This document shows, piece after piece, positions 12,201 to 29,259 of a DNA stretch of 64,000 nt (positions are counted from its first letter, which is position 1; the number at the start of each line of letters is the position of its first letter). Made by a program: the position numbers and the translations under genes. Under the pieces are notes generated by a model that ran no database searches, was not told where the DNA came from, and saw only the letters and a list, made by a program, of their open reading frames with translations. The stretch covers positions 1 through 64,000 of the IMG/VR virus record IMGVR_UViG_3300016469_000277; one strand, written 5' to 3'. Source of the stretch: a virus.

Positions 12201-15200
12201 TCCAACTATTGAGATTGGTAGATATGTTCAATACTCTGCTGATAAAGAAACTTACATCATAACAAAGCTTAATGCTAACGGGACTATCCAAATCTACAAT
12301 CCTACCAAAGAAGGAGCAGCAGCTAAAAAATCTGTATCTGCTAAAAACCTAACTCCCCTAGAAGAGATAGGTAAAATAGTAGAATATAGAGATGCCAACT
12401 ATCTTGTTACCCCAAAAAACACCATTATATCTCTGACTACTAATAAAGTAATGCAGTGGGCAGAAGGAGATGGTAACAGAAAAGCAATACTTGCTTTAGC
12501 TAACCAAGCACCCCAAGCTCCCGTTATTACTCTAGTAGTTGAACCAGAAAATCCTGCTGCAGAAACAATTGAAGCAGCGCTTCAAAGTAGAATAGAAGAA
12601 CCTACTTACGTTCCAGAAAAGAATGATGAAGTGTCTTTTACTTACTACGGTAAAGACTATACAGGATTATTTATAAGAAAAACTCTAGACAATAATTACG
12701 TTATCCAAGTTCCAGGTGAAGGACAAAAAGAATTTATAGCTAGTGCTGTTTCTAATATTACTAAAGTAACAGAAGAACCAGATTTACCTACAGACTTTGG
12801 ACCTCTTGAAAGACCTAAATATTTAGGAAACTTTATTTCTCCTGTACAAAATGAAAGAGCTCGTACTTGGACTAACACTATAGGCAAGAAAATCTTTGGT
12901 GAAGATAGACTTATCTTTGAACAGACTTTATTGCACCCTAGTGCGTATGCTGTTTGGAGTAAGGCTGCTACTAGACTGTTTAAAGATTCAAACTATGCAG
13001 ATGTATATCACGAAGCTTGGCACGAATTTACTCAAATGTACTTTACCGCAGAAGAGAGAAAAACTCTTTATGATAGAGCAAGAAAAGTTTACGGAGATTT
13101 AACTGACATAGAATTAGAAGAAAAACTAGCTGAAGATTTCCGTCAATTCATGCTTACAGGAGTAATGCCTGAATCTATTCAAAAATCAAAAGAAGCCAGA
13201 AATATTTTCCAAAAGATTTTAGACTTCTTAAGTAACTTCTTTACCAACAAAAAAACTATTGACCGGTATTTTAAAAACTTAGCCAAAGGAAAAGTAGGAA
13301 GAAGGGTTGACTTCCCTCAGTTTAAAACTTTGTATTCTGCTAAGAAATTAGTACTTAAAGAAAATAACAAAAATGTTCCTCTTTCCTTCCAAGAGACTAA
13401 AGGGTATCTTGATCTTATAGATCAGTTGTTTCTTTATGTAGCTAACGAAGCAGGAAAACAAAGAGGGGGTACTTATGTAAACATACTTTACAATCCTAAA
13501 GAGCTTAATAATGTTTACAATGCTGTTTTTAATTACATAAAAAAATTAAGAGGTGAGGCTAAAACTACACAAGATTTTGTTGCTTACAACGAACTTACTA
13601 GATTAATAGGCCCAGAAAGTACTAACTTTAATAGACTTAAAAATCTACATTTCCGTTACTCTCCTTTGTTTACTACTGCTATTAGATTAGCTGCTCGTGA
13701 AGCTCAAGAAGACGAACAAGGAGCTCAACAAGGTAAAGATGCTTTTGACCAACAAGAAGACGGAGTTTTCTTTAGTGATAAATCAATTACAGAAAGATCC
13801 CAAGAAGACTACGCTGAACCCTTAATTATCAATCTTATCTATGCACTTCCATTAATAGAGAATGGGGAAATAGTTTATAACAGTTTAACTGGTGCTCCTA
13901 TTTTAGGAGAGTTTGAGACCAACTGGAATATCCTTAAAAACACTCTTCAAAATTCTCCATCTTACGATGATATGCTAGATAAGATAAAAACTCTAGCAAA
14001 AGATTTTTCTCAATTTAATTCTTTGTTAGAGCTTCTTCCTGCTAAAGGCCCAATTAAAAGAGCTTCAGACCAACAATTAAGAAATCAGTTTTATAATGTT
14101 TTCTCAATGGGGAGAACCCCAGGCGTATTTGCTAAATTTGGGGCTAATGGAAAATTCTCTGTAAGTAATACGTCTAGCTTAGACACTAAAGGAGTTAAAG
14201 ATATTTGGTTAGTTAATTTTAACTCAACCAAAGATGGGCTTTACAAACAACTCTCTGCAATTACAGGTAACTACAGACTTGACGCAGAGGCTTTGTTTGA
14301 AGCATACCCAGAAGCCCCTAAAACTCCAGAAGGTATGTTGTCGTTCTTAGGAGCCATTGGATTTAATTACGCCCAAAAATCTCAAGAAGACTTTATTAAA
14401 AACGCTAGCAAGTACGAAACAGCGGTTTATTATATTTATACAAAACTCAAAAGTTATCATTACTCTACTGATGAGGAAATCTTTGACCCATTTACTGTAA
14501 TTAGTACTAGGCATTCTTACGAGGAAGACGGAGAAACTAAATCTTACGCAGGACAAGGAAGATACTTAAACAACCTTGTTCAAGTAGAAGTAGATAGTAA
14601 CCCAGCTTACGCTAACGATATGGTAATTGTAGCAGACGGCACCACTCAATATATGGTTAACCCTCCTACTTACCAGACTAAAATTATCAATGCGTTAAAC
14701 GATACTAGATATGAATACTTTGAAGACTTGTTTGCGCCTTACCCATTTTTAGATCCATCTAGAAACTGGGGGCTAAAAGGTTCTGCTGATATAGATTATT
14801 TGTTTGATTTTAACAACCCTGTCAAAGTAGGCAATGAAATTAAACATCCTAGAAAAAGAACTGAAAACATACCTAACTCTCTAGAAGTAGTAAACCTACA
14901 AGGTACTCAATCAGACATTTCTATAATGAACAAAAAGACAATTGATCTTTCTGACGCAGAAAAACATTTGTCTGATATTAGAACTCTTCTTTCTCCTTAT
15001 GGTAGAACAGAAGAAAACAACCGTATTGGTGAAAAAGCCACAACTCGCGGCAAGAGAATTACTTCTGATAAATACTTCTTATTTAATCCTAACTCATTTT
15101 TAAGAGTAGATCCTCAACGGGGGAGATTGTTTTCTCCTAAGCCCGAAGTTTGGGATATAATCTTTAACTATATTAAAGCTGAAGTAGAAATCACTAATAA

Positions 15201-18200
15201 AAATTCTACCTCTACAAGATTTAATAAACACAAGTATACTAACGGAGTTCCTAACTTAGCTTTCTTTTCCCACATCTTAAGTGACGAATTAAGAACTAAA
15301 GTTTACGATTCTTTAACTAAAAACCCAGTAGAAGACAACCAGGATTTTCCTTATGCAAAAGAAGTAGCAGATGAGTTTTTAAATTGGGTTAAAACTTTAA
15401 CAAAAGCTAGTAGGATAAATGTTCTTTCTAAACTAAAAGAATCAGAAAATAAAGAAACCGACTACTATGTAGAAGATTTTGACTTAGTTAGGTATCACTT
15501 TATTTCTTTTATTCATCGTGTAGAACAGTTTAAACTATTTAACTACCATCCTTACTACTATAAGAATGCTGCTGATGTAGCTAAACGTATCTCTGGCGCA
15601 AATGCAACAGGAAATTACCCAGTAGTAGATAAAGAAAACGTAGACTTTGTAAACTCCTCTCTTAAGTTAAATGGCTTTGAGTCTTTTAAAAAGTATGCAG
15701 AGCATGAAAACATTACTATACTCCCAAGAGAAGGAGACAATCCAACTACAGAATTTACCTATATAGTATTTAAAGACACTCCTGTAGATTCTAAAACTGC
15801 AAAAGAAAACAGAGAAGACTATGGAAATAATGGCCAGTATTATATAAACGAAGAACGTGAGTCCCCTGCAGATACTCAAGACGCAGCTTCTATACTTACT
15901 TTGGATACGTTTAAGAAGTTCTTTTCTATGGAAGGTAAACTTGATAAAAGTCTAAGTTTAGAAATCCAACGCCAAGAAAAAATATGGACTAACTTAATTG
16001 AAACTAAAATTAACCCTGATAATGCTGAAGCAAGACAGAATCTTTTAGATGCTCTTAACGAGGGTCCTTATTATATTTTTTCTATTAAGAAACTTCAGTA
16101 TTATGGACCTGGATATAAAGAAGTAGAAATTGTTCCTTTATTCCATAAGTATTCTAATAAAGTTCTTCTTCCTTCTGAAATGGTAGATAATGAAGAATTA
16201 TTTAACCTAGCAGTTAAACTTTATTCTTCTAATGCAGATTACGGATTATTTGGCTCTGCTACTAAAATTGCAGAAACTATTTCTCCAGTAGACTTCATTA
16301 CTGAAGAAGGGACTATAGACATTACCCCGACTAAAGCAGGTGTAGCTGATTTAAGATTTCTCAAAGAACAACAAGAAGTAGAACACAAAGAAGATATGCT
16401 TATCATCTTTGCTACTCAGTTTAGAAAACTCTTGTTTAGGGATATGGATACTCCTAAAGAAAGAGAGTTGTTTGCTACATATAAAGAACAAGTTGAAAAA
16501 CTAGTAGACTATGATAAAGGCCGTTTCTTAAAAAATATCGAAGATAAAGAACTTGCAGTAGAATTCTTAATTAATGCTTTAAGTAAAAAGAATGTAGATG
16601 CTTATACTCTTGATTCTATAAAATATAATGAGTACACCAAGGATCTTCAGTACTCTATGGACTCTATCTTAAGTAGAGTGGTTGCTGAGAGTGCTTTGAT
16701 GTCTGAAACAAGAAAAGCTATTGTTCGTCAAAAGTTTTATGGAAGTCAGTTTGTACAATTCCCTGTTAGTGTTATTCGCCCTGGTAAGAAATTAAACTTT
16801 TACAGAAAAAAGAATGGGGAGATACTTCCGGCTGAATGTATTATTGCCTTCTCTCCTAAGTATTATTCTTTGTTTAGTCTTCCTTTTGATAAAAATACCA
16901 CTATTGGAGAACTAGACGATAAAGGTAAACCTGTCAATGTTTATGAAGGGTTAAAGCGTCTTAACCAAAAACTTGCTGAAGATCCTTCTTTTAGAGAAGA
17001 CAACAAAGAAGCTTTAAGACTAGCAGGTGTACGTATCCCTGTACAAGGGTACAACTCTATGGAATACATGGAAATAGTAGAGTTTTTGCCTGAAGAATCT
17101 GGGGATATGATTTTGGTTCCAGACGAACTAGTAGTAAAATCAGGAGGTGATTTTGATATTGACAAACTCTTTATGTATGAGCCTGTCTTGAGGGACGGTA
17201 AATATTTAAGCGAAGAAAACAGAATCGACTTAAGTAAAGAGTTAGAAAAAATAGAAAAGATTAAAGCAGAGAAAAAAGACAACCAAAAAACTAGGGAAGA
17301 ACTCCAAGAAATTGCTGACACCTTTAAAACCACTGTAGATAAACTTAAAGAAAGTCTTGGTTACGAAGAAATCGAAGAAGTTGCTGACGAATCTAAAAAC
17401 GATCCCATAGAAACTGTTAAAGCTTTGTCTATAGCAGAAGAAAGAAAACTTTTACAAAACCAACTCCTTACTACTATTAAAAAACGTCTTTCTCAGCCTC
17501 AAATCTTTGAAGACCTAATTGAACCTAACAACGTAAACAATATTAAAGAAGGTGCAAAAAATGCCCCTGACTATCTAACAAGCAACTTTAACAAAAACAC
17601 AGTTGCAAACGGAAGAGAAATCTGGTCTAATGTTGTTAACCCTCTTTACCAGCTTTATGTATTCCAGTTAGCTAGTGCTAAAAAGATGGTAGGTATTGCA
17701 GCAAAAGGAGGTACCTTTTTAACTTCTGCACAAGAAGCTAAACTTAATATTATCCAGTTTGAGGCTACTTCTCAAGTATATCTAGACGTACATAGAAATG
17801 AAAAGAACGAAATTGAACTTTGGCGCATAAAAGACGTATCAGGTGAAAATAAAATAAGCCAAATAAACAGTGAGGCTATTTCTGGTTCAGTAGATATTCT
17901 TAAAAATGATGACATCTTAAGAATCAACTTTACTCCTGGAACTATTCCTGTGGTTCTCTATCTTAACAGTATGGGGGCTAGAATAAAAGATGTTCAAAAA
18001 TTTATTGGAGAAGAACTTATTTATAGATACGACAAAGGAGAAACCTTCGAAGATTTGCTTTCTGAGTACCCTGAGCTTTTGACAAAATACGGAGTATTTG
18101 ACCAATATGGAGTTTTTGTAGAAAAAGCAACGGTTACAAAAATTAGCAAAGCAATTAAAAAGAATGATTTTTTAACCGACGAAACTGACGAAGGTAAAAT

Positions 18201-20898
18201 AAAAAGACTTGCTAACTTTATTGTATTAAAGAATCAGCAAAGCGAAAACATCACTCCTTTAATCAATACAGTAGACTATGATACTGCCAACTTCCAAAAC
18301 TTTGAATCAATCAGAAGAAAGATAAACGAATTAGATGATCTTAAGAAGAAAAGGTTCTTTAACGCAGATGCTTTAGAGAAAATAATCAAAAAATCCGTAG
18401 TAGCTCCTTTTGAAATTCAAGAAGATGTTTTAGACAAATTTGCTGAGCTTTTCCCAATTTCCGCAGAAAGAGCATTCACCAATACTATTATTAGACAATA
18501 CAAAGCTGCCAAACGACTTCCTAAAAATAAAAAACTTTCTTATGAATCATTCTCTAGAAGGTATAAGAATGAGTTTATGACTGCTGTTTGGCAAACTATC
18601 TCTTCAGAGGCTAATGACTATATCAAATATTTAGAAATTGGAAACGAAGACAATATAGTTGAAAAACACAGAAGATTAAAAGTAGAAGCTGCTAGGCTAG
18701 GAATTAACATTCCTCTTTTAGATACTGTTATGTTTACTTCTGCAACTGGCTCTGCTTATGTGGCTCCTGGTATGAGAAGAAGTGAAAGTAACTTTGATGT
18801 AGATTCTTGGAAAGAAAACTTTAACAACAACCTAGAATACACGTTACCAGAAGATTTTGTAACGGAAAAGAATTTCTTGCGCGAAGACTTTGAAGACGAT
18901 GTAAGAGAGTTTTTTGAGATCTTGGCTTACACCGGAATACTAACTTCTAGATTAAGTAAAACTTACAGTTCTTACTTGACTATTACTCCTGAACAAATCT
19001 ACACTCCTATAGTTGACAAGAAACTAAGAACTTTAGGTAAAGCATTTAAAGAGACCTTTGAAAAACAAAAAGAACTTAATGCTAAAATAACCAAAGAGAT
19101 AGCAGAAGCCGAAGCAAAATCTCCAGAAGGAGTTATAACTCAAGCTGTAACTGAAGAAATAACAGACAAATACAACAAAGAATTTATTCAGTGGGTACAA
19201 TCTCAACCAAACTTCTTTGAAGAAGCTCCTACTAGAGCTGCAATTTCTACAGCTCCCATAACAGCAGAAGAAATTTATACTCAACTAGGTAACAAAACTA
19301 AATCTGAAAATGTAGTTATTAAACCTTGGGGGGAATTAAAAGATGCCACAAGACCAATAACTCCAGAAGGCATTGTTTCTACAAGAATTAAAACTACTGA
19401 TTATAATTTTGGTAATATTTTTTCTCACCAATTTTCAGGAAATTTAATAAAAACAAAAACCGTTAAAGAAGCAGTAGAAAGGTATATTAATTGGGTAATT
19501 ACTGGTGAAACTGGAGAGTATGTTTTTACAGGAATACAACCTGAAGAGATAGAAGAAAAAAGAAATTGGTTATTAGAACAATTAAAATCAGGAGAACTAA
19601 AAGGTAAACCTATTCTTTACTATAAAGAACTTGGAGAACCTTCTCATGCTACAGCTTTAGATTACCTTATTAACAAATACGATTGGTCTAAACCTACTAC
19701 ACCTACTGTAAGTGAAGGTATTGAAATTAATTCTAAGCAAACAGGATTAGGAAATGATTTAACAAATGTACATTATGCTACAAATGGTAAATCTAAGTTT
19801 GATATTAGACCTTCTGATGCTTCTTTAACACTAACACCTGAAGCTAAAAAAACATGGGGAGAATCCGTAGAAGCTTGGTACAAATCTAACAATGCTAAAT
19901 CTAAAGGCATTCCTGAAGGAACAGAAGGAGATGCTTATGATATGAAACTTATGATAGGATTAATAACTGATAAGTTAAAACAATATCCTGATTTAGTTAC
20001 ACAAATTACAGAAAGAGGAGGTTTAGCGTTTTTAGATAAATCTACTCACACTATGGGAACTGGTAGATGGAGTAGTAAAAATCCAAAAAATATGTTTATG
20101 AATGCTTTAAAACAAGCATATCGAAACGTATCTACTACACCTACTGTAATTACTTCTACTTTAACTAATGTTAACTTCTTAGAAAGGTTCCGTCTGCGCT
20201 TTATAAATAACAACCCAGACATATTTAATACAGATTTTAAACTTAAACCTAACCCTTCTTTAAAGTATTACAAAAACTATAACTTAAATGAAAGTGATGC
20301 TTCTGTTCTAGCTTCTTACCCTCCTTTGGTTACTACAGACAAAATAACTTACGCAGATGAAGCCGCTTCAAAAGCAATGCTTGAAAGAGCTCCATTTGAA
20401 GAACCAGAGAAACTCCCGGCCATTGAACTAGAAGTTATTAATAAAGCTAGTAAAAAGTCAACTTACTCTATTCCTTCTATTGCAGGAGAAATTATAGAAA
20501 AAGAAGGATACAAACTTGATATTCCAGGTTATCCTAATGTATCTTTGTATTTAACTAATCAATCATTATTTACAGAAGAGGGAAAAACAAGACTAGTTAA
20601 ACAAAATGGTTGGATGGTAGATGTCGCCTCTTTTGGGGCTATGTCTCCAACAGTTTACAAAAATCTAACAGAAGCAACAGAAGCAATAAAAGATAAAGTA
20701 AGAGAAGTTTCACAGGATCCAGAAAAAAGAAAAGATCTTGAAAGAATAGGATTCACAGAGGAAGGACAAGTATTCCCCTTAGTTGAAAACCCAGGAACAA
20801 ACCTTTCTACTACTACTAATCCAACTGCTTACGATTCAGATATTGTAAACGAAGTAAACAGCAAACCCACAGACGAATCAGAATGTAATATAAGCTAA
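6235..20898 (+). CDS. Giant virion-packaged DNA-dependent RNA polymerase (crAss type) fused to N-terminal membrane-interacting region, zincin domain and accessory inserts
   Basis: GGDFDIDK (17143-17166) and RIPVQG (17032) as in phi14:2 gp66-type RNAPs; HEAWH...EEKLAEDF zincin motif (13009); Gly/Ala hydrophobic segments at ~8100-8350. Confidence 0.92.
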   Translation: MAKIVNQPKGGPPVMRTDERMKMFLQSTEPPITDADKETLNLRSKLVKGGDPELQKEFGYLAKQKQLPFPEVADPNYKYDQAINRLITKRNNGTASAKELQVLNYHFKKQNEYQNKLLQKDASLPDVGTQLLNSWKKDFPTLEDYKKQSVEQSGFLPSDFIGDPEKAKELNEEITYKLQLIPQLYKENNYEAVKGIQRSISDLLAENSDIFPQFKTYNTLNLISQKADIIKARQSINNAAASRNRSLGNQLATKLGGLPTTQKAQELEGAFMGVSQLSNMQFSVQDYLAGKTGPMGAEDIINLVPIPNSKFNQLTQKYLGKDLATPKSIMADEKERGRVALSSGLEMLSERPGDFYSAEALPAFLQNKEGFLQTEKYQRAAIDAEETFKNATLADYYDQFLETRRERANLLIYKKDLIAQHNRANELAKQLGRPPLPMLETEDVDNQLEDLDFQLRDLEEEIENIKTYNPEERYKKEYPLAYAYKQQHDYESARFNTPASLGASIFDLLTPSFLQRPGKQVTVQEKLSMAIAQGSKQIYDRWQDLDLSGSITSALFKDSERDKAKRNLWLQTGKYNSEGYTIGIDEEGNPVKSGQFFWTDKQGKYHFNPYATVESGLPVAEQMLETILLAEIGGAAFGVGSKIAGGAIEATGISTLGKLAAGDIASALSLDAAQLAKLSNVANKGKVLLSPGVQQRLLTFGSVMATTYPSIYQEEYKNFKNPVDARDVALLRASIESISESVIPNVASLYTKGTGAFLGIGRSYRSLLRDAVEGTTQKMFPGATNKFVRKFADSRFGQAVGTAGRYIKEKGKDLFQEAVVEEEAALFGNYFVDKIAKQKDSSYVMQNELTASNILKTAIEATAGMLITAPFMGGGTTRARNYDIASARWQVANNPEVFKSLATADFEAGKLTKEEYVNKVANINMMAEELKNLPINIGSIRDLDTLLEDKDAQLEYYSNYLQKQALNKLEAENPELAAEYKAGTKDISGIFKETKVTEEQRKAYEESVKDIDKKLYKTEKLASIYDNLTYEQKEEIVAKNFQRKYEKLVSHEDLSPLQLAMVIAQHEKDLEDNPETYAVQNQAYIESLKNSLGIVRSNFMDFIRNNNDNLTFEQLDYKLNFLLQPNSVFLGENEYRLAAKDLSRRMALSVGPYEEIEDENEFIEVVARNFVTSKYSEIPLTSNGKPLLVKMMDNYVNEKLFDKFVEGLPKEERKAKQDELSEKFLKRVVELKQTLKEGQAFPEITSVLEAKKEEEAKKAKAPEPAAAPQVREKYRSIYESYKEAKEAYNTEDANIYESMAAAELLKEATVEELLAGLESVKPIFEDVNVAKVIEDIQNGNTASLESLLTKKGVTKKAIAEFKDKLFPEITVQLPEIVVEEETADGAPEVEGLVELSEEPTEADEENENRVKVTQEKTRQEYLEQDRPNQVYLGITDTGFDEDRREDPNTDLIYSLVDRIQNSLAETNLRALGYHLLMKSDKDILALVGITPEYKEDYASFRAQFIINGIPVRSEATIAYYHKNFDLFGTYKVGIITDSNQSPLYFDKSGQKVKTGTPIIVNIGQPGEGPGKESDKKFKEAIPPQGQFVALSSFINGANVGREKIKSSVVGQLRLIVGQNETVTAESGKSYTLYKGVAYLPTGDVNFPYVSTYTPSVTRNTAVEVLALVKAFNEMTKNPEASTLPEYFKSMTLQEFHNYLNAYVYIPDNSKENSWGLVQTKRKGETERSHVKFFVRLENNKATVSLSEEDILNLLSGSKTEKGTIYAGIPKDFFNEGRTFRPFTVEDGKIKVGKITPFRNWFAQRSTIDKYSKTRPNRNLAFQKEDVVTLQAPTVTKEAPVSDIITDDVYNIFIDKNIVPDNILNSIADKIIARASLSQRETAIFSGKTSEINEIIRKKAPTAAPVSDKKADIERRRDTVLAKITRISGHGTKGIRWVSYEYTEEGKYKKGYSFSSDSKEETIKLINDKYNEELAALEAKPEAPKVETKVPTIEIGRYVQYSADKETYIITKLNANGTIQIYNPTKEGAAAKKSVSAKNLTPLEEIGKIVEYRDANYLVTPKNTIISLTTNKVMQWAEGDGNRKAILALANQAPQAPVITLVVEPENPAAETIEAALQSRIEEPTYVPEKNDEVSFTYYGKDYTGLFIRKTLDNNYVIQVPGEGQKEFIASAVSNITKVTEEPDLPTDFGPLERPKYLGNFISPVQNERARTWTNTIGKKIFGEDRLIFEQTLLHPSAYAVWSKAATRLFKDSNYADVYHEAWHEFTQMYFTAEERKTLYDRARKVYGDLTDIELEEKLAEDFRQFMLTGVMPESIQKSKEARNIFQKILDFLSNFFTNKKTIDRYFKNLAKGKVGRRVDFPQFKTLYSAKKLVLKENNKNVPLSFQETKGYLDLIDQLFLYVANEAGKQRGGTYVNILYNPKELNNVYNAVFNYIKKLRGEAKTTQDFVAYNELTRLIGPESTNFNRLKNLHFRYSPLFTTAIRLAAREAQEDEQGAQQGKDAFDQQEDGVFFSDKSITERSQEDYAEPLIINLIYALPLIENGEIVYNSLTGAPILGEFETNWNILKNTLQNSPSYDDMLDKIKTLAKDFSQFNSLLELLPAKGPIKRASDQQLRNQFYNVFSMGRTPGVFAKFGANGKFSVSNTSSLDTKGVKDIWLVNFNSTKDGLYKQLSAITGNYRLDAEALFEAYPEAPKTPEGMLSFLGAIGFNYAQKSQEDFIKNASKYETAVYYIYTKLKSYHYSTDEEIFDPFTVISTRHSYEEDGETKSYAGQGRYLNNLVQVEVDSNPAYANDMVIVADGTTQYMVNPPTYQTKIINALNDTRYEYFEDLFAPYPFLDPSRNWGLKGSADIDYLFDFNNPVKVGNEIKHPRKRTENIPNSLEVVNLQGTQSDISIMNKKTIDLSDAEKHLSDIRTLLSPYGRTEENNRIGEKATTRGKRITSDKYFLFNPNSFLRVDPQRGRLFSPKPEVWDIIFNYIKAEVEITNKNSTSTRFNKHKYTNGVPNLAFFSHILSDELRTKVYDSLTKNPVEDNQDFPYAKEVADEFLNWVKTLTKASRINVLSKLKESENKETDYYVEDFDLVRYHFISFIHRVEQFKLFNYHPYYYKNAADVAKRISGANATGNYPVVDKENVDFVNSSLKLNGFESFKKYAEHENITILPREGDNPTTEFTYIVFKDTPVDSKTAKENREDYGNNGQYYINEERESPADTQDAASILTLDTFKKFFSMEGKLDKSLSLEIQRQEKIWTNLIETKINPDNAEARQNLLDALNEGPYYIFSIKKLQYYGPGYKEVEIVPLFHKYSNKVLLPSEMVDNEELFNLAVKLYSSNADYGLFGSATKIAETISPVDFITEEGTIDITPTKAGVADLRFLKEQQEVEHKEDMLIIFATQFRKLLFRDMDTPKERELFATYKEQVEKLVDYDKGRFLKNIEDKELAVEFLINALSKKNVDAYTLDSIKYNEYTKDLQYSMDSILSRVVAESALMSETRKAIVRQKFYGSQFVQFPVSVIRPGKKLNFYRKKNGEILPAECIIAFSPKYYSLFSLPFDKNTTIGELDDKGKPVNVYEGLKRLNQKLAEDPSFREDNKEALRLAGVRIPVQGYNSMEYMEIVEFLPEESGDMILVPDELVVKSGGDFDIDKLFMYEPVLRDGKYLSEENRIDLSKELEKIEKIKAEKKDNQKTREELQEIADTFKTTVDKLKESLGYEEIEEVADESKNDPIETVKALSIAEERKLLQNQLLTTIKKRLSQPQIFEDLIEPNNVNNIKEGAKNAPDYLTSNFNKNTVANGREIWSNVVNPLYQLYVFQLASAKKMVGIAAKGGTFLTSAQEAKLNIIQFEATSQVYLDVHRNEKNEIELWRIKDVSGENKISQINSEAISGSVDILKNDDILRINFTPGTIPVVLYLNSMGARIKDVQKFIGEELIYRYDKGETFEDLLSEYPELLTKYGVFDQYGVFVEKATVTKISKAIKKNDFLTDETDEGKIKRLANFIVLKNQQSENITPLINTVDYDTANFQNFESIRRKINELDDLKKKRFFNADALEKIIKKSVVAPFEIQEDVLDKFAELFPISAERAFTNTIIRQYKAAKRLPKNKKLSYESFSRRYKNEFMTAVWQTISSEANDYIKYLEIGNEDNIVEKHRRLKVEAARLGINIPLLDTVMFTSATGSAYVAPGMRRSESNFDVDSWKENFNNNLEYTLPEDFVTEKNFLREDFEDDVREFFEILAYTGILTSRLSKTYSSYLTITPEQIYTPIVDKKLRTLGKAFKETFEKQKELNAKITKEIAEAEAKSPEGVITQAVTEEITDKYNKEFIQWVQSQPNFFEEAPTRAAISTAPITAEEIYTQLGNKTKSENVVIKPWGELKDATRPITPEGIVSTRIKTTDYNFGNIFSHQFSGNLIKTKTVKEAVERYINWVITGETGEYVFTGIQPEEIEEKRNWLLEQLKSGELKGKPILYYKELGEPSHATALDYLINKYDWSKPTTPTVSEGIEINSKQTGLGNDLTNVHYATNGKSKFDIRPSDASLTLTPEAKKTWGESVEAWYKSNNAKSKGIPEGTEGDAYDMKLMIGLITDKLKQYPDLVTQITERGGLAFLDKSTHTMGTGRWSSKNPKNMFMNALKQAYRNVSTTPTVITSTLTNVNFLERFRLRFINNNPDIFNTDFKLKPNPSLKYYKNYNLNESDASVLASYPPLVTTDKITYADEAASKAMLERAPFEEPEKLPAIELEVINKASKKSTYSIPSIAGEIIEKEGYKLDIPGYPNVSLYLTNQSLFTEEGKTRLVKQNGWMVDVASFGAMSPTVYKNLTEATEAIKDKVREVSQDPEKRKDLERIGFTEEGQVFPLVENPGTNLSTTTNPTAYDSDIVNEVNSKPTDESECNIS
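11745..11956 (+). repeat. 17-bp in-frame direct repeat AGCTCCTGTTTCTGATA bounding a 65-codon unit
   Basis: Copies at 11745-11761 and 11940-11956, each preceded by AAGCTCCTACAG (11723, 11927). Confidence 0.9.
19694..20149 (+). repeat. 18-bp in-frame direct repeat CTACTACACCTACTGTAA bounding a NADAR-like domain
   Basis: Copies at 19694-19711 and 20132-20149; offset 438 nt = 146 codons. Confidence 0.9.
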
Positions 20899-20899
20899 A

Positions 20900-23800
20900 A
20901 TGGCCTGTAGACAAGATATAAAAACCGCAATACTAAAAAAAGTATACACTAACTACATAGAAGGAAGACCTACCTACGGTAAAGTAGAGGATGGTCTTTT
21001 TATAATAACAAGTCAAAAGTATACAAAAGGTAAATCCAAAGCAGCAAGCTTAAATCAAGCTTTATTCATTGCTAGAGAACTACGTACTTTAATTGTTAAA
21101 GACTTTGGCAATAACTTAGAAGTGAATATTATTCCTCCTGAGTTTGTAGGAATTCCTGTTCAAGTAAGAGTAGCGCCTACTTATGAGTATATAGAAAAAC
21201 TTTTCTCTCAAATTGACCCAGACAAAAGAACTGAGTTTGTATCTAGAGAAGGGTTTCTTCAAAACCCCAACTTGCTTGAAAGACAGATTCTTGAAGAACT
21301 TCAAACTAAATTTATTCCTCAAGCCGACTTTATAGCCCAACAAATAAGAAAAGAAACAGACTTTATTATTTATAATGATTTTAGAAGAACTTTCTTCCAA
21401 GACCAAGCTTTATACGAACAAGAACTAGCGGAAGACCAATATCTCAGACTTGCTAAAAAACTTCCTCCTCCTATTTTAGGAGAAAAAGGCCAGTATAAAC
21501 TTTTTTCTAAAGTAGATAAAGAAGAAGTTGAGTTACTTACCGAAACAGTTGCTGCTGACCTTTTTAACTTTTTAAAAGAAAAAACTGGTTTAGCAGGCAA
21601 TGTAATAAATGATAAATCTCAAAAGTTTAAAGGCGCTGTTATAAATGGAGTACCGACAATAAATGTAGCCTATGCAGAATTAAGTGATGGGTTTCATGAG
21701 TATCTGCATCCAGTTATGATGTCTTTGAGAGTTTCTAATCCTAAACTTTTTAATAAACTTTATAACGATTTAAAGAGTTTACCCCAATGGAAAACAATTG
21801 CAGATAAAACACTGGATAGAGTGCAAAAACTTTATCCCGAACTTAAAAATATTGACGATTTTATGGAAGAAGCTTTAGTTACTGCTTTAGGGTATGCTTC
21901 TGAATTAAAATCAAATAAACAATTAGAGACAGTAAAATCTAATAGACCATTTCTTGATTGGGCAAATAATTTTTATAAATGGTTAACAGAGTTTCTACAA
22001 GGATTATTTATTAATACAGTAGATCTTTCCAGAGTAGGATTAAATACTACATTAGAAAATATAGTAGAGTGGATGACTGATACTAAGACAAGGATACTTC
22101 TAGCAGAAAATTGGCAAACCCTTGTAAACAGAGAAGAAAATATAGACAAACAACTAGAAGTTACAGAGGTAGACACTCTTAATTCATTAAGTAATAGTTT
22201 ACTTTCGGAGTTAGTTAGAGTAGATAAAACAGAAACTTTAGAAGAATACATAAACAAATGGGTAGAAAAAAAATTTAAACTAAGACAAAAAGAATATGTA
22301 CCTAAAAAGTTTGATAGAGAAAGTTTTGCATACAAAGAAGCTCAAAACTTGATTGCCACTGTTGCTACTTCAGGTTATAACTTAAATACTGAAGAAATTA
22401 AAAAACTTCCAGAAAGCACCTATCAAAAACTAGCTCAGGTAATTGAACAATTAGATTTAAGTTTTAAATTTAGTCTCTGGTTAGATAAAAAAGGAAATAC
22501 TGTAATTGCTTTAAACTCACCTTTTAAGCCAGATAATGTTCCTTCCGCTGAAATTGTAGCTGTAGATCAATTTAGAAAATTTTTACTAGAAAAATATCCA
22601 GAAAAAAAATCACTACCTGCAAATGAAATAGCTATTGAGTATAAAACCTGGGCACAAGAAAACTACGGGCTAAATGTTACTGATGCTACTGGATATGAAA
22701 GTTATGGTTTATCTAGACTTACTACTTCTTCAACTAAAAATAAAAATTACACTAGGAAGTTATTTCTTGATGATTATTTAATAAAACAAGGACATACATT
22801 TCAATTAACTTCTGAAGTGACTGGAAATGGTTTAGGTTGGTACGCATCTGTAGATATTAATAATGATGGTTTTGACCACGAGTTTCAATCGGATGTTCTT
22901 CCAGAAATTAATAAATCTTATAAAAAAGATGAATACAAATCACAAACCTATCAATTAAAAACCTCTTCTGCAAGAGAACTTGCAGAGATGGTGGCTAGAA
23001 ATAAAGTGCAAAAAGAACTTTCGTTTAGTCTAGATAGTAAAATAGCTAATGTATTAAATAATGATTTTGATTTTAGTATGGATTTAGACGTAGTTAAAAA
23101 CTATTTAATTTCTGAAATAGATGTATCTAAAGAACAAAGTTTGATGTACGGAAAAGTCTCTTCAACTTTACTAGGGTGGAAACTTACTAATAAAATTATA
23201 CTTACTTTAAAATTTCCAAAATCTGAAAACTTTAAACAATTAGAATCTTGGATAAATAAATATATAATAATTGAAACTGCTAAAGAATCAGAGTTTTTAG
23301 AAAATAGAAAATTAGAAACTGAGATGGTAGATTTGCCTTTTTCTAAAATTGCAAAAAAAATATTTCTTATGTCAAAAAAAGATACAGATAATTTCCATCA
23401 TAGTTATTATTTATCTCCAGAAGGTTTTACAAATTTACCAGAATTTTTAAAAATAGAAGTAGATAGGCATAATGCTTGGCATCAAAGTAAAGATCCATTA
23501 AGACCAGATATGCCCGCAACTATTAGTACACTAGCTGTTGTTTTTGGGCCTCACGTACATTCTTTAAATATAGCCACTTTGTATCCTTACTCAACTAAAA
23601 AACTGAGAAATTATTGGCAATTATCTAGTAGACTATCTAATGTATACTCTGTAGCTAGTGACCAAATTACTAAAACTTTTAACAAGTATAAAAAAGCAAA
23701 AAAGATTCTTAGCGGAAGTGATTTTAGAAAAAAACTTTATGAAGATACAAATAACATAGTTAAGATTCAACAATATTGGAAAAATCAATATGAAAGGTTT

Positions 23801-24565
23801 TTATCTTTTTACACTAAAGAGTACGAATTTGTAAAACAAGAAGCTCAAAACCAACTAACTGAAAAAAGTTCAGAAAATAGAGAACAGTTTTACAAAAAAT
23901 ATGTAGATATTTATAAAAAATGGTTTGATATTACTATTCAACACTCTGTAAATACTAGAAAACTACAAGGAAGAAATTATTACTATCTTCCTACTAGTCA
24001 AGCAATGGAACTAATTGAAGGTAATACTATTGCAGCTCCTCTTTATAGAAGTATTTTTGAAGTAAACAAAGAATTAACAAATTACACTCGTCACACTTTG
24101 GCTGGTTACATACAACAGAATACCCAAGAAACTACTACAGAAATTCAAAAATATTGGCCTCAAATACATACAGTTATAAATCAAGACTCTACTGTTTTTG
24201 ATATAGCAGATGCTCTTATTGCAAATACTGATTTTGTAAATAAAAGTGAAAGTTATAAAGATTATGCTTCTAAAGAAGTAGCTCTTGCAAAAGTTTCTTC
24301 TGTTGGACCTTTTTACACTGCACTTTCAAAGTTTGCCAAGAAAAACAACATCAAGTTAACTTATGAACAACCAGATTGGAGTAAAGCTGCCTTAATAAAA
24401 GTAGATCTTACTAATTATGAATATAAACCAATTGATCGTTTTTCTAAAGTAATACCCACTGCAATTGAAAAACCTTCAGACAAAAAAATAGAAGAATTTA
24501 ACGAGCTTACCTCTATCCCAGAAGTAAGAGGAGAAATATACTTTCAAACAAAAAATTGTAAATGA
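20900..24565 (+). CDS. Large polyvalent virion/ejection protein with zincin-like metallopeptidase domain
   Basis: FHEYLH (HEYLH at 21695) plus downstream EEALV; HEFQSD motif; only Cys at residues 3 and 1220. Confidence 0.7.
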   Translation: MACRQDIKTAILKKVYTNYIEGRPTYGKVEDGLFIITSQKYTKGKSKAASLNQALFIARELRTLIVKDFGNNLEVNIIPPEFVGIPVQVRVAPTYEYIEKLFSQIDPDKRTEFVSREGFLQNPNLLERQILEELQTKFIPQADFIAQQIRKETDFIIYNDFRRTFFQDQALYEQELAEDQYLRLAKKLPPPILGEKGQYKLFSKVDKEEVELLTETVAADLFNFLKEKTGLAGNVINDKSQKFKGAVINGVPTINVAYAELSDGFHEYLHPVMMSLRVSNPKLFNKLYNDLKSLPQWKTIADKTLDRVQKLYPELKNIDDFMEEALVTALGYASELKSNKQLETVKSNRPFLDWANNFYKWLTEFLQGLFINTVDLSRVGLNTTLENIVEWMTDTKTRILLAENWQTLVNREENIDKQLEVTEVDTLNSLSNSLLSELVRVDKTETLEEYINKWVEKKFKLRQKEYVPKKFDRESFAYKEAQNLIATVATSGYNLNTEEIKKLPESTYQKLAQVIEQLDLSFKFSLWLDKKGNTVIALNSPFKPDNVPSAEIVAVDQFRKFLLEKYPEKKSLPANEIAIEYKTWAQENYGLNVTDATGYESYGLSRLTTSSTKNKNYTRKLFLDDYLIKQGHTFQLTSEVTGNGLGWYASVDINNDGFDHEFQSDVLPEINKSYKKDEYKSQTYQLKTSSARELAEMVARNKVQKELSFSLDSKIANVLNNDFDFSMDLDVVKNYLISEIDVSKEQSLMYGKVSSTLLGWKLTNKIILTLKFPKSENFKQLESWINKYIIIETAKESEFLENRKLETEMVDLPFSKIAKKIFLMSKKDTDNFHHSYYLSPEGFTNLPEFLKIEVDRHNAWHQSKDPLRPDMPATISTLAVVFGPHVHSLNIATLYPYSTKKLRNYWQLSSRLSNVYSVASDQITKTFNKYKKAKKILSGSDFRKKLYEDTNNIVKIQQYWKNQYERFLSFYTKEYEFVKQEAQNQLTEKSSENREQFYKKYVDIYKKWFDITIQHSVNTRKLQGRNYYYLPTSQAMELIEGNTIAAPLYRSIFEVNKELTNYTRHTLAGYIQQNTQETTTEIQKYWPQIHTVINQDSTVFDIADALIANTDFVNKSESYKDYASKEVALAKVSSVGPFYTALSKFAKKNNIKLTYEQPDWSKAALIKVDLTNYEYKPIDRFSKVIPTAIEKPSDKKIEEFNELTSIPEVRGEIYFQTKNCK
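21502..24451 (+). repeat. 13-bp in-frame direct repeat TTTTTCTAAAGTA (FSKV) bounding a 979-codon unit
   Basis: Copies at 21502-21514 and 24439-24451; AT-rich, so chance is not excluded. Confidence 0.55.
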
Positions 24566-27500
24566 GCACCTGTATAAATAGATCTCATCCTGAGTTTAAA
24601 TCTTTAGTAAATTCTATAGGTTACTCAGAAAACGAAATAGCTGCTTTAGTCAGTTTATGGCAAAATAATAACCCCGTAGAAAGAGATGCAGACGGACAAC
24701 CTAGATTTCCTACTAGTCAAGAATTAGAAAACTACATAGCTAGTGTAAGAACTAATGAGTTCCCTAAGATGTCTGATCCTTACTTTAAGTTTATTTCTCA
24801 GTCTCTAAAAGCAAATTGGTCTGGACCTACAGGAGATAATGTATCCGGCTTACTAAATAGGTTTAAAAGATCTTTAGGAGTAGACACAGCAGGCTCAGAA
24901 GTTGTTCTCCCTGAAGAAGCGCTTAAACATCTATTATATACAGCAGAAGCTGGAGTAGTTACTAATGAAACTTTAACTCAAGCTATAGAAGCACTTAATA
25001 CTTATTTGGGATATTCTGCTTCTTACATGCAGGGAATTGCAAATAACCTAAGTAACTTTTTAAGTAAAGACTTAACCTCAAGGCAGAAAGTCTCTGCTTT
25101 GTTTTTTGCTTTTGAAATTGCAAACAACTACAAAAAACAGTTAGAAGCTATTTTCCCTAGTAACTCAGATAGTTCTTTTGCAGAGATGTCTGGGTTTTTT
25201 AAAGATCCTGCTTATACCTTCTTAATGGACAATGTAGAGAAAATAAGAAAATATGTAGGAGAAATAGAAAGGTCATACGATAGTAAATTAAAAAATGAAG
25301 TAGTTGATATTCTTTATGATTATTTAAAACCTAACACCGCAGAAGTAGATGAGATTTTTGACAAAGAAATAAGACGCTACGACGAAGCTATTCAAGCTAC
25401 TAAAGATCCTAAAATTATTCGTACTCTACAAAACTTAAAGAGAACTCAAGAGGAAAAAAAGAAAGAACAAAGAATTTCTAAAGAAAATGTAAGAAAATGG
25501 TTATCTGACCCAAGAGGCGCTGGAGTATTTAATTATTTTAGATCTAGTAAAGATATGAAAGACCCTGCAGTTCAAAACATTGCAAGTTATATCTTTAGTA
25601 TATTAGAGGACGGCAAACAAGAGTTTTATCAAGAAGTAAACGAGCTTCAAACTATTCAAGAAAGGATAGAAAAAGAAGCAAACAAAACAGTAGACTTTAG
25701 GATAGATGTTAGAAAAATTTACCGACCTTACTACCGGGAAACCGTAGACCAAAATGGAAACTTTGCTCTTGCTATTCAAACTCCTATGAAGGAGCAAGAA
25801 CTTCTAAATAAATATATCCAATTAACTAAAGCTCTAGAAGCAGCTGCCACAGAAGAAGAAAAAGATGTTTTAGAGGAAGAGCTTGAAAACTTCATGGAAA
25901 CCTACGTAGAAAGACGTTACGTAGATGCTGTTTACCAGTATAGAAAAATGCTGCCCAAAGAACTCAAAAATAAAATGAACCGCTTAAGGGCAGAAAGAAC
26001 AAACATACTTGAAGACTTAGACCCTCTTAAAATTGAAGAAGGAGACTTAATCAAGTTAAGAGAGATAGATAAACAAATTTATAATTTACAAAAAGAATAT
26101 ACAGAAGACGGGGTTTTAAAAACAGGTCAAGAGTTATTAGACGCACAACTTATTAAGGCTTATAATCAAAAAGCTGAGGAGTTAGGTATTCATAGTTTTT
26201 ATATAACTCCTGCTTCTAGAAGGAATTTTGAAATAGCTTACCAAGAACAAACAGAAAAAAATAAAGCAATTCAAGAAAGTGATGCTACTGCTGAGGAAAA
26301 AGAAGCTGCTCAACAACAATACAATAACTGGCTTTCTGTTTATACCAGGACTGTAATTAACCCTAGATTTTATTCTTACAGAAATGAAATTACTGCTGAG
26401 ATTGATGAAATCTTAAGTAAATATGAAAAATCTACAATAGGAGACTTATACAGAGATTTATTTTCTCTTTTAGCAGGTTATAGGGATAAAAACGGTGCTT
26501 ATGACGGAAGCATTGCTTCCCAGCAACTTGTAGCCAGAACCAAAGAGGTAGAAGAACAAATAGAGTCTTTAAGGCAAACAAGCAAAAACAAAAACATAAG
26601 TAGAGAAGATAAAGATCGTCTTTCTGAACTTTTTACTAAATTAAAAAATATTCAAGTAACAGCTCCTACAGAATATTACTTAGATGAGGTAGAAAGACAA
26701 AAAAATATAATTAAGTCTAAACTAGAAGCAGCTCAAGATTGGGATCCTACTGTTTTGCAAGAACAGGTAGATAAACTTTATGAAAGATCTGAATGGTTTT
26801 ATAACAATCACATCAAAGTAACCAGATACGTAGATGGAAAGAAAACCGAATCTTGGGAACCTTTATCTATTTGGAAGTTTACTATGCCTTCTCAATTAGC
26901 AGAATCAGAACTAGTAAACCAAGTAGTCCAAGAAATAAAATCTCTGCAAGCGCAAAATGATCCTTCTCTGCAAGAAGAAATAGACAAATTAAAAAAATTC
27001 AAAGTAATAGACAGGATAGCGCCTTCTAAAATTTGGTTTAGCTACGGGGTAAACAAAAAGTATGAAAACCCGAATTATAGTCCTGATTTAAAGTTTAAAA
27101 CTGTACAAGGAGCTTACTATAATGAGGAGTGGGACAAACTTACTCCTGAACAAAAAAGCATAGCTACTGATTTGTTAGCTCTTTACAGACGATCTCAAGA
27201 AAAAAACTATAAATCTAACCGACTTAACACCCTTGTTCCTTTTGTACGAAGAGACGGAACTGAAAGATTATACGATGCACTTGCTAGAACTGCTCCAGAA
27301 AAAACAAGTGAAGGGGTTAAAAAAGTTCTAAGAGGAGGACTGTTTAAAAACTTAAAAAGTTCTTTAAAAGCTATGTGGCATAGAGAAGACTTACAAGACG
27401 CTGAAGTAGACGATGTATATGGAGATGTTAACCAGGTAGATGTCTTTGGTAATCCTTTAAATAAAACGTCTAGAGCTATTTACATGAGATACACAAAACC

Positions 27501-29259
27501 TCTAGATAAAGATGTTCTGTCTTTTGATATTACAAAAAGCATAGGTCTTTACATGGGGGAAGCAGCTAGGTTTAGGTCTTTAAGAGAACATCAGTCTGAA
27601 ATTCTTGCTATGCAGAGTGTATTAGACAAAGCTTCAGGTTTAGCAGATGTTAAAAGTACTCCTCTCTATCAAAAAGCATTTAGAGTAACAAAAGATCAAG
27701 CAGTTAGTTGGTTTAAGAAAAAAGACTCTCCAGAAAGAAAAAAAGCCCTGCAAGAAAAAGCTGTTAGACAAAGGTATGAAGCCTCTCAAAATATTCATGG
27801 GTTAATCAATAGACTACTTTACGGAGAAAATATAAAGAAACTAAATTCTGAATTTTTAACTAGTATACAATCTGTTCTTAACCATGGGCTACAAATAGTA
27901 GGCAGAATGTCTATTGAGCAGAATCCTAGATCCACTGTTAAAAACTTAGTAGCTGGTATGGTTTCTAATTTGATTAATGCCGGAATTTATGATATAAGCG
28001 AAAAAGATTTAATTGCCGCACAAGTTGATGGGTTTAGAGCTGCTAAAGCTTTTTTCCTTAATCCTCAAGTAGGAAACAGACCTTATAACTTAAGGTTAAT
28101 GGATTACTTTGGAGTAATAATGGGTAGAGAGTTTGCAGAAGGTAAAAATATTAAATCTACCTTTATGCGAAAACATGGCAATCCTTTAAAGGGGGTCCAT
28201 CGTCTTAGAGAAATTACCGAGTATGAATTACAAACATCTATGGCTTACGCTATCTTAAACAAACAATACGTACAAACAGAGGATGGTCTTAATGTAAAAC
28301 TTACTGAAGCTTTTGAAATAGTAGACAACAAGCTTGTTCCTAAAGAAGGAGTTATTATCCCTGAAGGTATGATTAACCGGATAAGAACAAAAATCAAACA
28401 AGCTCTTCATACCTCTCAAGGTATATATGATCAACTTTATCAACCAGAAGGAAGTAAATATGTAACTTACAGAGTAGCTCTTTACATGGGTAAGTGGGTA
28501 ATGCCTAAAGCTGATAGGTTATTTGGAGAAGAAAAAATAAACTATGGAGCTGCTATTAGAACTCAAGGTAGTTATAATGTAATGTTTACTTGGTTAAAGC
28601 AACTAATTAGTGAACAAAATAACATTGCTGCCTCATACAAATACGCTTCCACTTCCGAAAGAAAAGCAATAAGAAGCTTAATGACACAAGCTGTTGTGTC
28701 GGCTACTTTAATTATCTTACAAAGACTTATTAAACATTGCGATGATGATGGAAGACAAGATGCTTGTGATGAGTTAAATTATTTAATAAAAGGAGTAGCA
28801 AACGAAGTTGAATCTTTAGACCCTGTACTTTGGACTCCTAGTTTTGTTTATGGGTTTGTAGATCAGAAAACAGATAAATCTTGGATAGAAAAAGGTTTTT
28901 ACAGTCTTTCTTCTCCTTTAATTAGGCTTAACCAAACCTTTAAAGAAATCTTTACTGCAATACTAGATCCTTTTGAACCTTATTACAAATATACTTCTAG
29001 TGGTAAAAAGAATTGGAATGTAACAGACCCTACTTTAGCAGGATTACCTGCAGCAGCAGTAATTGCTTTAAAATACACAGGTCTGAATCAACTTGATGTA
29101 AGTTACAGAGCAGGAGAATTTAAATCAAGACAACTTTCTTACTATAACCCTAAACTTTATATGGCAGATATGCCTACAAAAACACGTTACATTAGTAAGT
29201 CTGGAAAAGTTGCAAAGATTAAAAAAAGAAAAAAGAAAAAAGTAAAAAAGCAACGCTAA
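24562..29259 (+). CDS. Large crAss-like ejection/RNAP-associated protein
   Basis: CIN.SHPEFK.L N-terminus; coiled-coil body; hydrophobic segment followed by DDD near the C-terminus; last gene of the giant-protein block. Confidence 0.7.
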   Translation: MSTCINRSHPEFKSLVNSIGYSENEIAALVSLWQNNNPVERDADGQPRFPTSQELENYIASVRTNEFPKMSDPYFKFISQSLKANWSGPTGDNVSGLLNRFKRSLGVDTAGSEVVLPEEALKHLLYTAEAGVVTNETLTQAIEALNTYLGYSASYMQGIANNLSNFLSKDLTSRQKVSALFFAFEIANNYKKQLEAIFPSNSDSSFAEMSGFFKDPAYTFLMDNVEKIRKYVGEIERSYDSKLKNEVVDILYDYLKPNTAEVDEIFDKEIRRYDEAIQATKDPKIIRTLQNLKRTQEEKKKEQRISKENVRKWLSDPRGAGVFNYFRSSKDMKDPAVQNIASYIFSILEDGKQEFYQEVNELQTIQERIEKEANKTVDFRIDVRKIYRPYYRETVDQNGNFALAIQTPMKEQELLNKYIQLTKALEAAATEEEKDVLEEELENFMETYVERRYVDAVYQYRKMLPKELKNKMNRLRAERTNILEDLDPLKIEEGDLIKLREIDKQIYNLQKEYTEDGVLKTGQELLDAQLIKAYNQKAEELGIHSFYITPASRRNFEIAYQEQTEKNKAIQESDATAEEKEAAQQQYNNWLSVYTRTVINPRFYSYRNEITAEIDEILSKYEKSTIGDLYRDLFSLLAGYRDKNGAYDGSIASQQLVARTKEVEEQIESLRQTSKNKNISREDKDRLSELFTKLKNIQVTAPTEYYLDEVERQKNIIKSKLEAAQDWDPTVLQEQVDKLYERSEWFYNNHIKVTRYVDGKKTESWEPLSIWKFTMPSQLAESELVNQVVQEIKSLQAQNDPSLQEEIDKLKKFKVIDRIAPSKIWFSYGVNKKYENPNYSPDLKFKTVQGAYYNEEWDKLTPEQKSIATDLLALYRRSQEKNYKSNRLNTLVPFVRRDGTERLYDALARTAPEKTSEGVKKVLRGGLFKNLKSSLKAMWHREDLQDAEVDDVYGDVNQVDVFGNPLNKTSRAIYMRYTKPLDKDVLSFDITKSIGLYMGEAARFRSLREHQSEILAMQSVLDKASGLADVKSTPLYQKAFRVTKDQAVSWFKKKDSPERKKALQEKAVRQRYEASQNIHGLINRLLYGENIKKLNSEFLTSIQSVLNHGLQIVGRMSIEQNPRSTVKNLVAGMVSNLINAGIYDISEKDLIAAQVDGFRAAKAFFLNPQVGNRPYNLRLMDYFGVIMGREFAEGKNIKSTFMRKHGNPLKGVHRLREITEYELQTSMAYAILNKQYVQTEDGLNVKLTEAFEIVDNKLVPKEGVIIPEGMINRIRTKIKQALHTSQGIYDQLYQPEGSKYVTYRVALYMGKWVMPKADRLFGEEKINYGAAIRTQGSYNVMFTWLKQLISEQNNIAASYKYASTSERKAIRSLMTQAVVSATLIILQRLIKHCDDDGRQDACDELNYLIKGVANEVESLDPVLWTPSFVYGFVDQKTDKSWIEKGFYSLSSPLIRLNQTFKEIFTAILDPFEPYYKYTSSGKKNWNVTDPTLAGLPAAAVIALKYTGLNQLDVSYRAGEFKSRQLSYYNPKLYMADMPTKTRYISKSGKVAKIKKRKKKKVKKQR

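Follow-up and report, generated by a model that had tools for sequence, protein, structure and literature searches.

How several giant proteins encoded by separate genes could be held together in a fixed order inside a virion is a question raised by a block of cargo genes in the IMG/VR virus record IMGVR_UViG_3300016469_000277. The DNA analyzed here, hereafter called the window, comprises the first 64 kb (64,000 nucleotides, nt) of this 108-kb record. Three consecutive genes on its plus strand encode proteins of 4887, 1221 and 1565 amino acids (aa), which are almost devoid of cysteine (Cys) except at the termini that face each other across the two gene junctions. This paired, junction-specific placement of Cys is conserved among related crassviruses, and its gain and loss follow the fission and fusion of the genes. 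The explanation that we favor, and regard as rather probable, is that disulfide clasps join the cargo proteins head to tail within the virion.

The gene for the first chain member (4887 aa) is located at positions 6235-20898, that for the middle one (1221 aa) at 20900-24565, and that for the last one (1565 aa) at 24562-29259; the first junction is a 1-nt gap and the second an ATGA overlap. Together, the three proteins contain 7 Cys in 7,673 aa. Four of these are positioned at most four residues from a terminus, where uniform placement would, by our own arithmetic, give about 0.03. At the first junction, Cys4884 (codon at 20884-20886), the fourth residue from the C-terminus in the terminal sequence ECNIS, faces Cys3 of the 1221-aa protein (20906-20908) in the N-terminal sequence MAC. 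At the second junction, Cys1220 (24557-24559) in the C-terminal sequence NCK faces Cys4 of the 1565-aa protein (24571-24573) in MSTC. The interval 20884-24573 spans the Cys4884 codon to the Cys4 codon, and the middle protein contains no Cys other than the two at its ends. At the outer ends of the putative chain, the 4887-aa protein lacks an N-terminal Cys and is Cys-free over residues 1-3534, and the 1565-aa protein lacks a C-terminal one. The Cys content of all five plus-strand cargo proteins, i.e., these three and two smaller ones encoded upstream, is 0.076%, vs. 1.7% in the 18 other open reading frames (ORFs) of the window. The first-pass annotation had listed the Cys of the five proteins, and its counts and positions are exact according to the ORF translations and codons. 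The close pair that it placed near the end of the 1565-aa protein is real, but it is situated ~165 aa before the C-terminus and is not terminal.

The chain members are related to the RNA polymerase (RNAP)-associated proteins of cultured crassviruses. In the 4887-aa protein, the sequence HEAWH at residue 2259 (nt 13009-13023) aligns with the HEAFH region in the zincin part of crAss001 gp47 (E = 1.8e-9). A two-barrel RNAP region, with DFDID at residue 3639 (nt 17149-17163), matches phi14:2 gp077 (= gp66) in BLASTP (1.9e-13), and also crAss001 gp50 and p-crAssphage gp44. As both regions are present in one polypeptide, the 4887-aa protein is, judging from these alignments, a fusion of the first two proteins of the crassvirus RNAP block, i.e., of a gp47/gp65-like zincin part and a two-barrel virion RNAP. 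The 1565-aa protein is a distant, gp49/gp67-like relative of crAss001 gp49 (BLASTP, 2e-8), and in tblastn it matched this 'RNA-polymerase subunit' and 27 other crassvirus records. None of the 4887-, 1221- and 1565-aa proteins had a match in PHROGs or Pfam, and phmmer found no match for the 4887-aa protein in the PDB.

The homologous blocks of crAss001, gp47-gp50-gp49 (PMC10172136), and phi14:2, gp65-gp66-gp67 (bioRxiv 10.1101/2020.03.07.982082), follow an identical terminal-Cys rule, and their products were detected in virions by mass spectrometry (PMC10172136; phi14:2 GenBank notes). In crAss001, gp47 (2341 aa) has only Cys2339, gp50 (2412 aa) has Cys5, Cys1334 and Cys2404, and gp49 (1349 aa) has only Cys5. 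In phi14:2, where gp65, gp66 and gp67 correspond to GenBank gp078, gp077 and gp076, the first protein (1797 aa) has only Cys1797, the crystallized RNAP gp077 (2180 aa) has Cys3 and Cys2179, and gp076 (1421 aa) has only Cys3. Fpv1 obeys the rule as well: gp33 (4401 aa) has only Cys4400, and gp34 (1596 aa) has Cys3 and Cys1461. The window differs from crAss001 and phi14:2 in that the zincin and RNAP proteins are fused into the 4887-aa protein and the third protein is divided over two genes, with an extra clasp. Packing into the virion and delivery into the host are attributed to the products of this uncultured phage by homology.

The pattern extends far beyond these phages. An RNAP-core alignment scan yielded 80 crAss-like loci, which form 39 clusters when their RNAP cores are grouped at 50% identity. 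Junctions were defined as consecutive Cys-poor ORFs of at least 400 aa, and each was scored on both sides, for an upstream Cys within the C-terminal 1-9 residues and for a downstream Cys at residues 3-6. Both Cys were present at 119 of the 130 junctions and neither at 10; one junction had the downstream Cys only, and at this one an upstream Cys lies 20 residues before the C-terminus. The upstream Cys never occurred alone. Nine of the ten Cys-less junctions are the boundary of a small gp46-like protein with the first chain member. Fisher's exact test for the co-occurrence of Cys across junctions gave 4e-14, a value that is uncorrected for shared ancestry, since the junctions are not phylogenetically independent. 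Terminal Cys account for 241 of the 292 Cys (83%) in 468,503 aa and are concentrated in ~0.5% of the positions. Thus, the terminal enrichment and the pairing that the first-pass annotation had suggested looking for across crAss-like RNAP blocks are indeed found.

The topology of the chain is conserved as well. Chains of two, three and four proteins were found among the 80 loci; the first member never has an N-terminal Cys, and only one of 49 complete last ORFs has a C-terminal one, probably since the next gene lies beyond the end of that locus. Among 77 representatives related to the last protein, nearly all full-length ones have the N-terminal Cys at residues 3-8, and a C-terminal Cys is found only in a 567-aa fission product, which has both. 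At closer range, homologues of the 1565-aa protein with 61-43% identity (P0003-P0005) retained Cys4 and the CX8C pair discussed below and have no other Cys. P0001, with 63% identity to the core of the 1221-aa protein, contains just two Cys, one at residue 4 and the other third from the end, in termini that are unalignable. The same terminal-Cys pattern was found in 13 loci at 21-24% identity. Two alignments, one covering the N-terminal half of the last protein in 27 homologues and the other the final 500 aa of the RNAP proteins (too divergent for folding), each have a single invariant column, the terminal Cys.

Could each terminal Cys serve its own protein, as an anchor to portal, capsid or tail, in a homodimer or as a site of modification, with the facing placement being incidental? 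Many crAss001 virion proteins use disulfides (PMC10172136), and p-crAssphage gp47 has a lone C-terminal Cys without an obvious partner, which would fit such separate roles. However, separate roles do not predict the co-occurrence across junctions, with 119 both, 10 neither and none upstream-only, nor the balanced counts within a chain and the Cys-free outer ends, and we consider this explanation very improbable. Intramolecular N-to-C cyclization was rejected, as the first and last chain members have one such Cys each, and a lipobox or CaaX-type modification was rejected for lack of a signal peptide and because of variable spacing after the Cys.

In the window, the genes abut or overlap, and a signal at the DNA level, such as translational coupling or a start or stop context, might then place Cys codons at gene boundaries. 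Across the 80 loci, however, the junction gaps range from -8 to 1,837 nt. In crAss001, the genes for gp50 and gp49 share one strand and that for gp47 is on the other, an arrangement also found in 60-odd crAss001-like loci. Since the rule is kept with an opposite-strand partner and irrespective of the gap length, the signal acts on the proteins rather than on the DNA, and a DNA-level signal is refuted by these arrangements. Chance or an effect of composition fares no better: the rule persists at 20-25% identity with unalignable termini, and 83% of the Cys are in ~0.5% of the positions. We give this whole class of explanations practically no credence. As an aside, the clasp junctions of L002, L097, L099, L104, L121, L143 and other loci are separated by 483-1,837 nt without a same-strand ORF of at least 400 aa, and these gaps could hold mobile elements or small genes. 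In addition, several crAss001-like gp50 ORFs are interrupted, with pieces of 1440-1641 aa.

If the terminal Cys mark the sites where polypeptides have to be joined, they should vanish where genes are fused and appear where genes are split, and this is what is observed. The RNAP is encoded in split form in 19 clusters and in fused form in 11. Points of gene fusion are Cys-free, as exemplified by residues 1-3534 of the 4887-aa zincin-RNAP fusion, and numerous fused RNAP ORFs are entirely without internal Cys; the absence of Cys from fused genes was a further check proposed in the first-pass annotation. Conversely, the second junction of the window has a Cys pair where L090 and L007 have an unsplit gene. 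In L090, the single 2111-aa last protein is Cys-free at the equivalent point. A further fission product, P0015, has Cys at both ends.

The middle gene deserves separate consideration, because the first-pass annotation had suggested that a new protein could be slotted into the chain if it had a Cys at each end, as this one does. In tblastn and a pattern scan with the 1221-aa protein, relatives were found neither among phages nor in IMG/VR, and P0001 is its sole close homologue. Its residues 195-470 (21482-22309, plus strand), however, form an HExxH...E module, with HEYLH at nt 21695-21709, in which H, E, H and the downstream E are invariant in the alignment. This module is conserved in 20 relatives, there within the last protein. 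It is distinct from the HEAWH zincin of the 4887-aa protein and constitutes a second zincin-like module; profile searches of the PDB returned nothing convincing, and Pfam no match. The 2111-aa last protein of L090 is colinear first with residues 265-342 of the 1221-aa protein and then with residues 132-1543 of the 1565-aa protein. As the HEYLH core has its homologue in the N-terminal region of the last protein in most relatives, the middle gene arose by rearrangement or fission of existing modules; rather than a foreign insert, it is a part of the ancestral third protein that was rearranged and acquired lineage-specific additions. Other lineages have rearranged the same modules differently. 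In L168, the order is an N-terminal domain starting with CIN, the HExxH module and the remainder. In L013 and L102, the separate protein is the piece with the CPN domain, and it precedes the HExxH piece, whereas in the window the order is reversed. In all of these lineages, a Cys is present at every newly created terminus opposite another protein. Thus, of the original proposal that terminal Cys join the three products C-to-N in gene order, the pairing and the chain topology (C-terminal Cys only in the first protein, both in middle ones, N-terminal only in the last) stand as conserved features, and a disulfide of the same geometry is known from another phage, as discussed next, but the notion of a newly inserted middle gene does not stand.

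That phage is the cyanopodophage A4, where cryo-electron microscopy revealed that the C-terminal helix of gp27 lies in a cleft of gp26, held by a disulfide between Cys1715 and Cys5 (PMC12002296). In the sequence of Anabaena phage A-4L, these are the only Cys of gp27 (1717 aa) and gp26 (1114 aa), respectively. As in the window, these are consecutive giant ejection proteins, otherwise Cys-free, with a lone Cys at the facing ends. A4 differs in having one link instead of a chain of two to four proteins; it also has no RNAP, belongs to the Saffermanviridae and infects another host. Disulfides as such do occur in virions of crAss001, both in its tail and at its portal vertex (PMC10172136). By analogy with A4 gp27-gp26, we infer that the clasps of crassviruses use disulfide chemistry as well.

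In the N-termini of downstream proteins (~30 loci; 24571-24606 in the window), the terminal Cys is followed by recurring classes of motifs, i.e., C-P-N-x-x-x-P-E-W, C-K-A-S-I-K-S-P, C-S-I-I-R-N-K and C-A-L-G. Cys4 of the 1565-aa protein starts the conserved motif CINxxxPEF, which resembles the CPNxxxPEW that opens the downstream proteins of many relatives. Such recurrence suggests that the Cys borders a docking element instead of lying on a free tail. An AlphaFold2 (AF2) model of residues 1-700 of the 1565-aa protein, with a mean predicted local distance difference test (pLDDT) score of 74.8, shows an all-helical domain, with Cys4 in a short extended stretch just ahead of its first helix; Foldseek matched this model with generic helical-repeat structures only.

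Several observations weigh against disulfide clasps. A bond between cargo proteins has been seen by no experiment or structure in any crassvirus, and the cargo density is unresolved in crAss001 capsids (PMC10172136). The A4 precedent is an analogy only, since no similarity was detected: BLASTP of the crAss chain proteins against A4 gp26 and gp27 gave nothing better than E > 0.3, and Foldseek with the AF2 model of residues 1-700 did not return A4, nor anything at E <= 1e-3. Moreover, the rule is not absolute. In p-crAssphage (L087), the gp45/gp44 clasp is kept, but gp44 has seven internal Cys, and gp47 (857 aa) has a lone Cys856 with an N-terminal partner in neither gp46 nor gp45; the rule seems looser in this gut lineage. 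The window has its own oddity in Cys3535 (16837-16839) of the 4887-aa protein, ~100 aa before DFDID, which is missing from most relatives; by eye, its context resembles that of a Cys in L090 and of Cys1334 in crAss001 gp50. Furthermore, virion assembly takes place in a reducing cytoplasm, where non-covalent docking would have to precede any disulfide, and gut crassviruses inhabit anoxic environments. Thioredoxin and glutaredoxin were not found in the phage genome; neither was an Erv-type oxidase, but that search is uninformative, as its control too matched nowhere.

The reducing cytoplasm and the oxygen-free habitat would pose no difficulty if the facing Cys met as shared metal ligands or as part of a non-covalent docking motif, either of which could form during assembly, and the statistics of junction pairing fit any direct contact equally well. 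In the subclade of the window, four thiolates could in principle be provided by Cys1220, Cys4 and the CX8C pair. The latter consists of Cys1393 and Cys1402 (28738-28767) in an acidic loop, KDCDDDG..DACDE, and it is kept in homologues of the 1565-aa protein down to 43% identity; L090 and L091 have a CX12C instead. Most crassviruses lack the pair, however, and it is probably internal and outside the chain. In homologue alignments, neither terminal Cys has a conserved His, Cys, Asp or Glu at a constant distance from it, and with a single Cys per terminus a metal site is therefore not favored. For the same reason, a zinc hook as in Rad50, which is built from CxxC pairs, was rejected. Since the only solved case with this geometry, A4, is a disulfide, we judge metal sharing or mere docking distinctly unlikely. 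A split intein or trans-splicing was also considered. The N-intein half comprises ~100 aa and starts with a Cys, and the C-intein half ~35 aa followed by Cys+1. For such halves, Cys at 1-9 residues from the C-terminus and at residues 3-6 leave no space, and this candidate was rejected.

Head-to-tail disulfide clasps would work as follows. A Cys in the last 1-9 residues of an upstream cargo protein would pair with the Cys at residue 3-6 of the next, and the bond would most likely form once the proteins sit packed in a virion that is exposed to an oxidizing medium. In the window, this would yield a chain of the zincin-RNAP fusion (4887 aa), the protein with the HExxH module (1221 aa) and the gp49-like protein (1565 aa), in gene order and 7,673 aa in total, whilst the small cargo proteins encoded upstream would remain free. 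The remaining Cys would have been purged, which would prevent wrong cross-links. Speculatively, the role of the chain would be to fix a 1:1:1 stoichiometry as well as the order of the proteins. The chain may also leave the virion as one thread, comparable to the single 3,500-aa virion RNAP (vRNAP) of phage N4, and the reducing cytoplasm of the host may then release or loosen it.

Cys depletion of injected proteins has a precedent in the Schitoviridae, where ejected proteins such as N4 gp50, the vRNAP, and DEV gp71-73 are nearly devoid of Cys, which was explained by the need to cross the envelope unfolded and unoxidized (PMC11445570). The statement in the first-pass annotation that the injected N4 vRNAP is Cys-free agrees with the literature (PMC11445570, PMC2784036). 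Giant injected proteins, including a virion RNAP, are thus nearly Cys-free in both groups of phages. However, the N4 vRNAP is a single polypeptide of the T7-like single-subunit class with no Cys at all, whereas in crassviruses the mass is split over two to four proteins, with Cys exactly at the split points. How the three RNAP-associated proteins of crassviruses relate to the N-terminal domain, core and C-terminal domain of N4 vRNAP was posed as a question in a 2026 paper on N4.

A disulfide need not imply a traveling chain. It might act as a staple that statically holds a folded cargo core together within the capsid, serving stability or co-packaging, without passage as a single thread and without reductive release. 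Indeed, the A4 disulfide stabilizes the helix-in-cleft contact within a symmetric pre-ejectosome, a pentamer, and it was described as a local stabilizer, not as a rule (PMC12002296); moreover, several copies of each RNAP-associated protein are stored in the cargo zone of the capsid, as estimated by Bayfield et al. Yet a core staple could occupy any surface site, whereas restoring a continuous chain would call for just what is seen, i.e., a strict head-to-tail order, outer ends that are free and a Cys pair wherever a gene has newly been split; in addition, crAss001 showed no ordered core (PMC10172136). Therefore, we regard a purely static role as unlikely, though not far-fetched.

Of the two cargo proteins encoded upstream of the chain, the 965-aa one (1641-4538, plus strand), which has no Cys, matches cargo protein C1 (crAss001 gp45, Fpv1 gp31) by position and weak similarity, and it stands outside the Cys chain. 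The 538-aa protein (4542-6158, plus strand), also without Cys, occupies the position of crAss001 gp46, and its boundary with the 4887-aa protein has Cys on neither side, as in nine relatives. Just upstream of this Cys-free block, an HNH endonuclease ORF at 401-1045 differs sharply in composition, with 20 Cys among its 214 aa.

The tail of the 4887-aa protein contains two adjacent modules of ~150 aa each (residues 4336-4645; 19240-20169, plus strand). Both recur, with 55-97% identity and at variable positions, in over 100 other giant proteins poor in Cys, many of which also carry helicase, 2OG-oxygenase, HD or NADAR Pfam domains. The modules look like shuffled payload cassettes. In 119 giant proteins that share them, the Cys content is 0.048%, and 144 of 246 Cys are terminal. 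Pfam gave no match at E <= 1 in the C-terminal 570 aa of the 4887-aa protein, and an AF2 model of the two modules was too poor for a structure search (pLDDT 56.6). Weak leads from the ESM atlas (0.85-0.88) pointed to DUF4326 for module 1 and to Phage_30_3/NADAR for module 2. DUF4326 normally contains Cys; the DUF4326-like motif in the tail reads SHA.

Already known are the suppression of Cys in N4-like injected proteins and one disulfide between ejection proteins, that of A4; in the literature on Crassvirales, no paper was found that mentions terminal Cys of cargo proteins. Perhaps, a more general 'cysteine clasp' rule applies, according to which any split of a giant injected phage protein is repaired by a pair of C- and N-terminal Cys. 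Shuffled modules from separate genes, including RNAP, zincins, helicases and candidate anti-defense domains, would then be packaged together and delivered as a single redox-cleavable thread. Such a rule would be common to Crassvirales and unrelated podophages like A4, and it might be usable for loading foreign cargo. This generalization is tentative, and we think it somewhat more likely to fail than to hold. Mass spectrometry data on crAss001 virions already include non-reduced samples (PMC10172136).

In the human gut, crassviruses are the most abundant phages, and how they store and inject ~0.7 MDa of RNAP-associated protein is a question that has been raised before (PMC10172136, PMC13434306). 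The terminal-Cys pattern provides a simple sequence signature for spotting injected chain proteins in metagenomes. If the proposed head-to-tail tether is real, it would explain the fixed order and the 1:1 stoichiometry of separately encoded subunits, the purging of Cys from the rest of these proteins and the tolerance of the block to gene fission and fusion, and the three crassvirus proteins would be the functional counterpart of the single N4 vRNAP chain.

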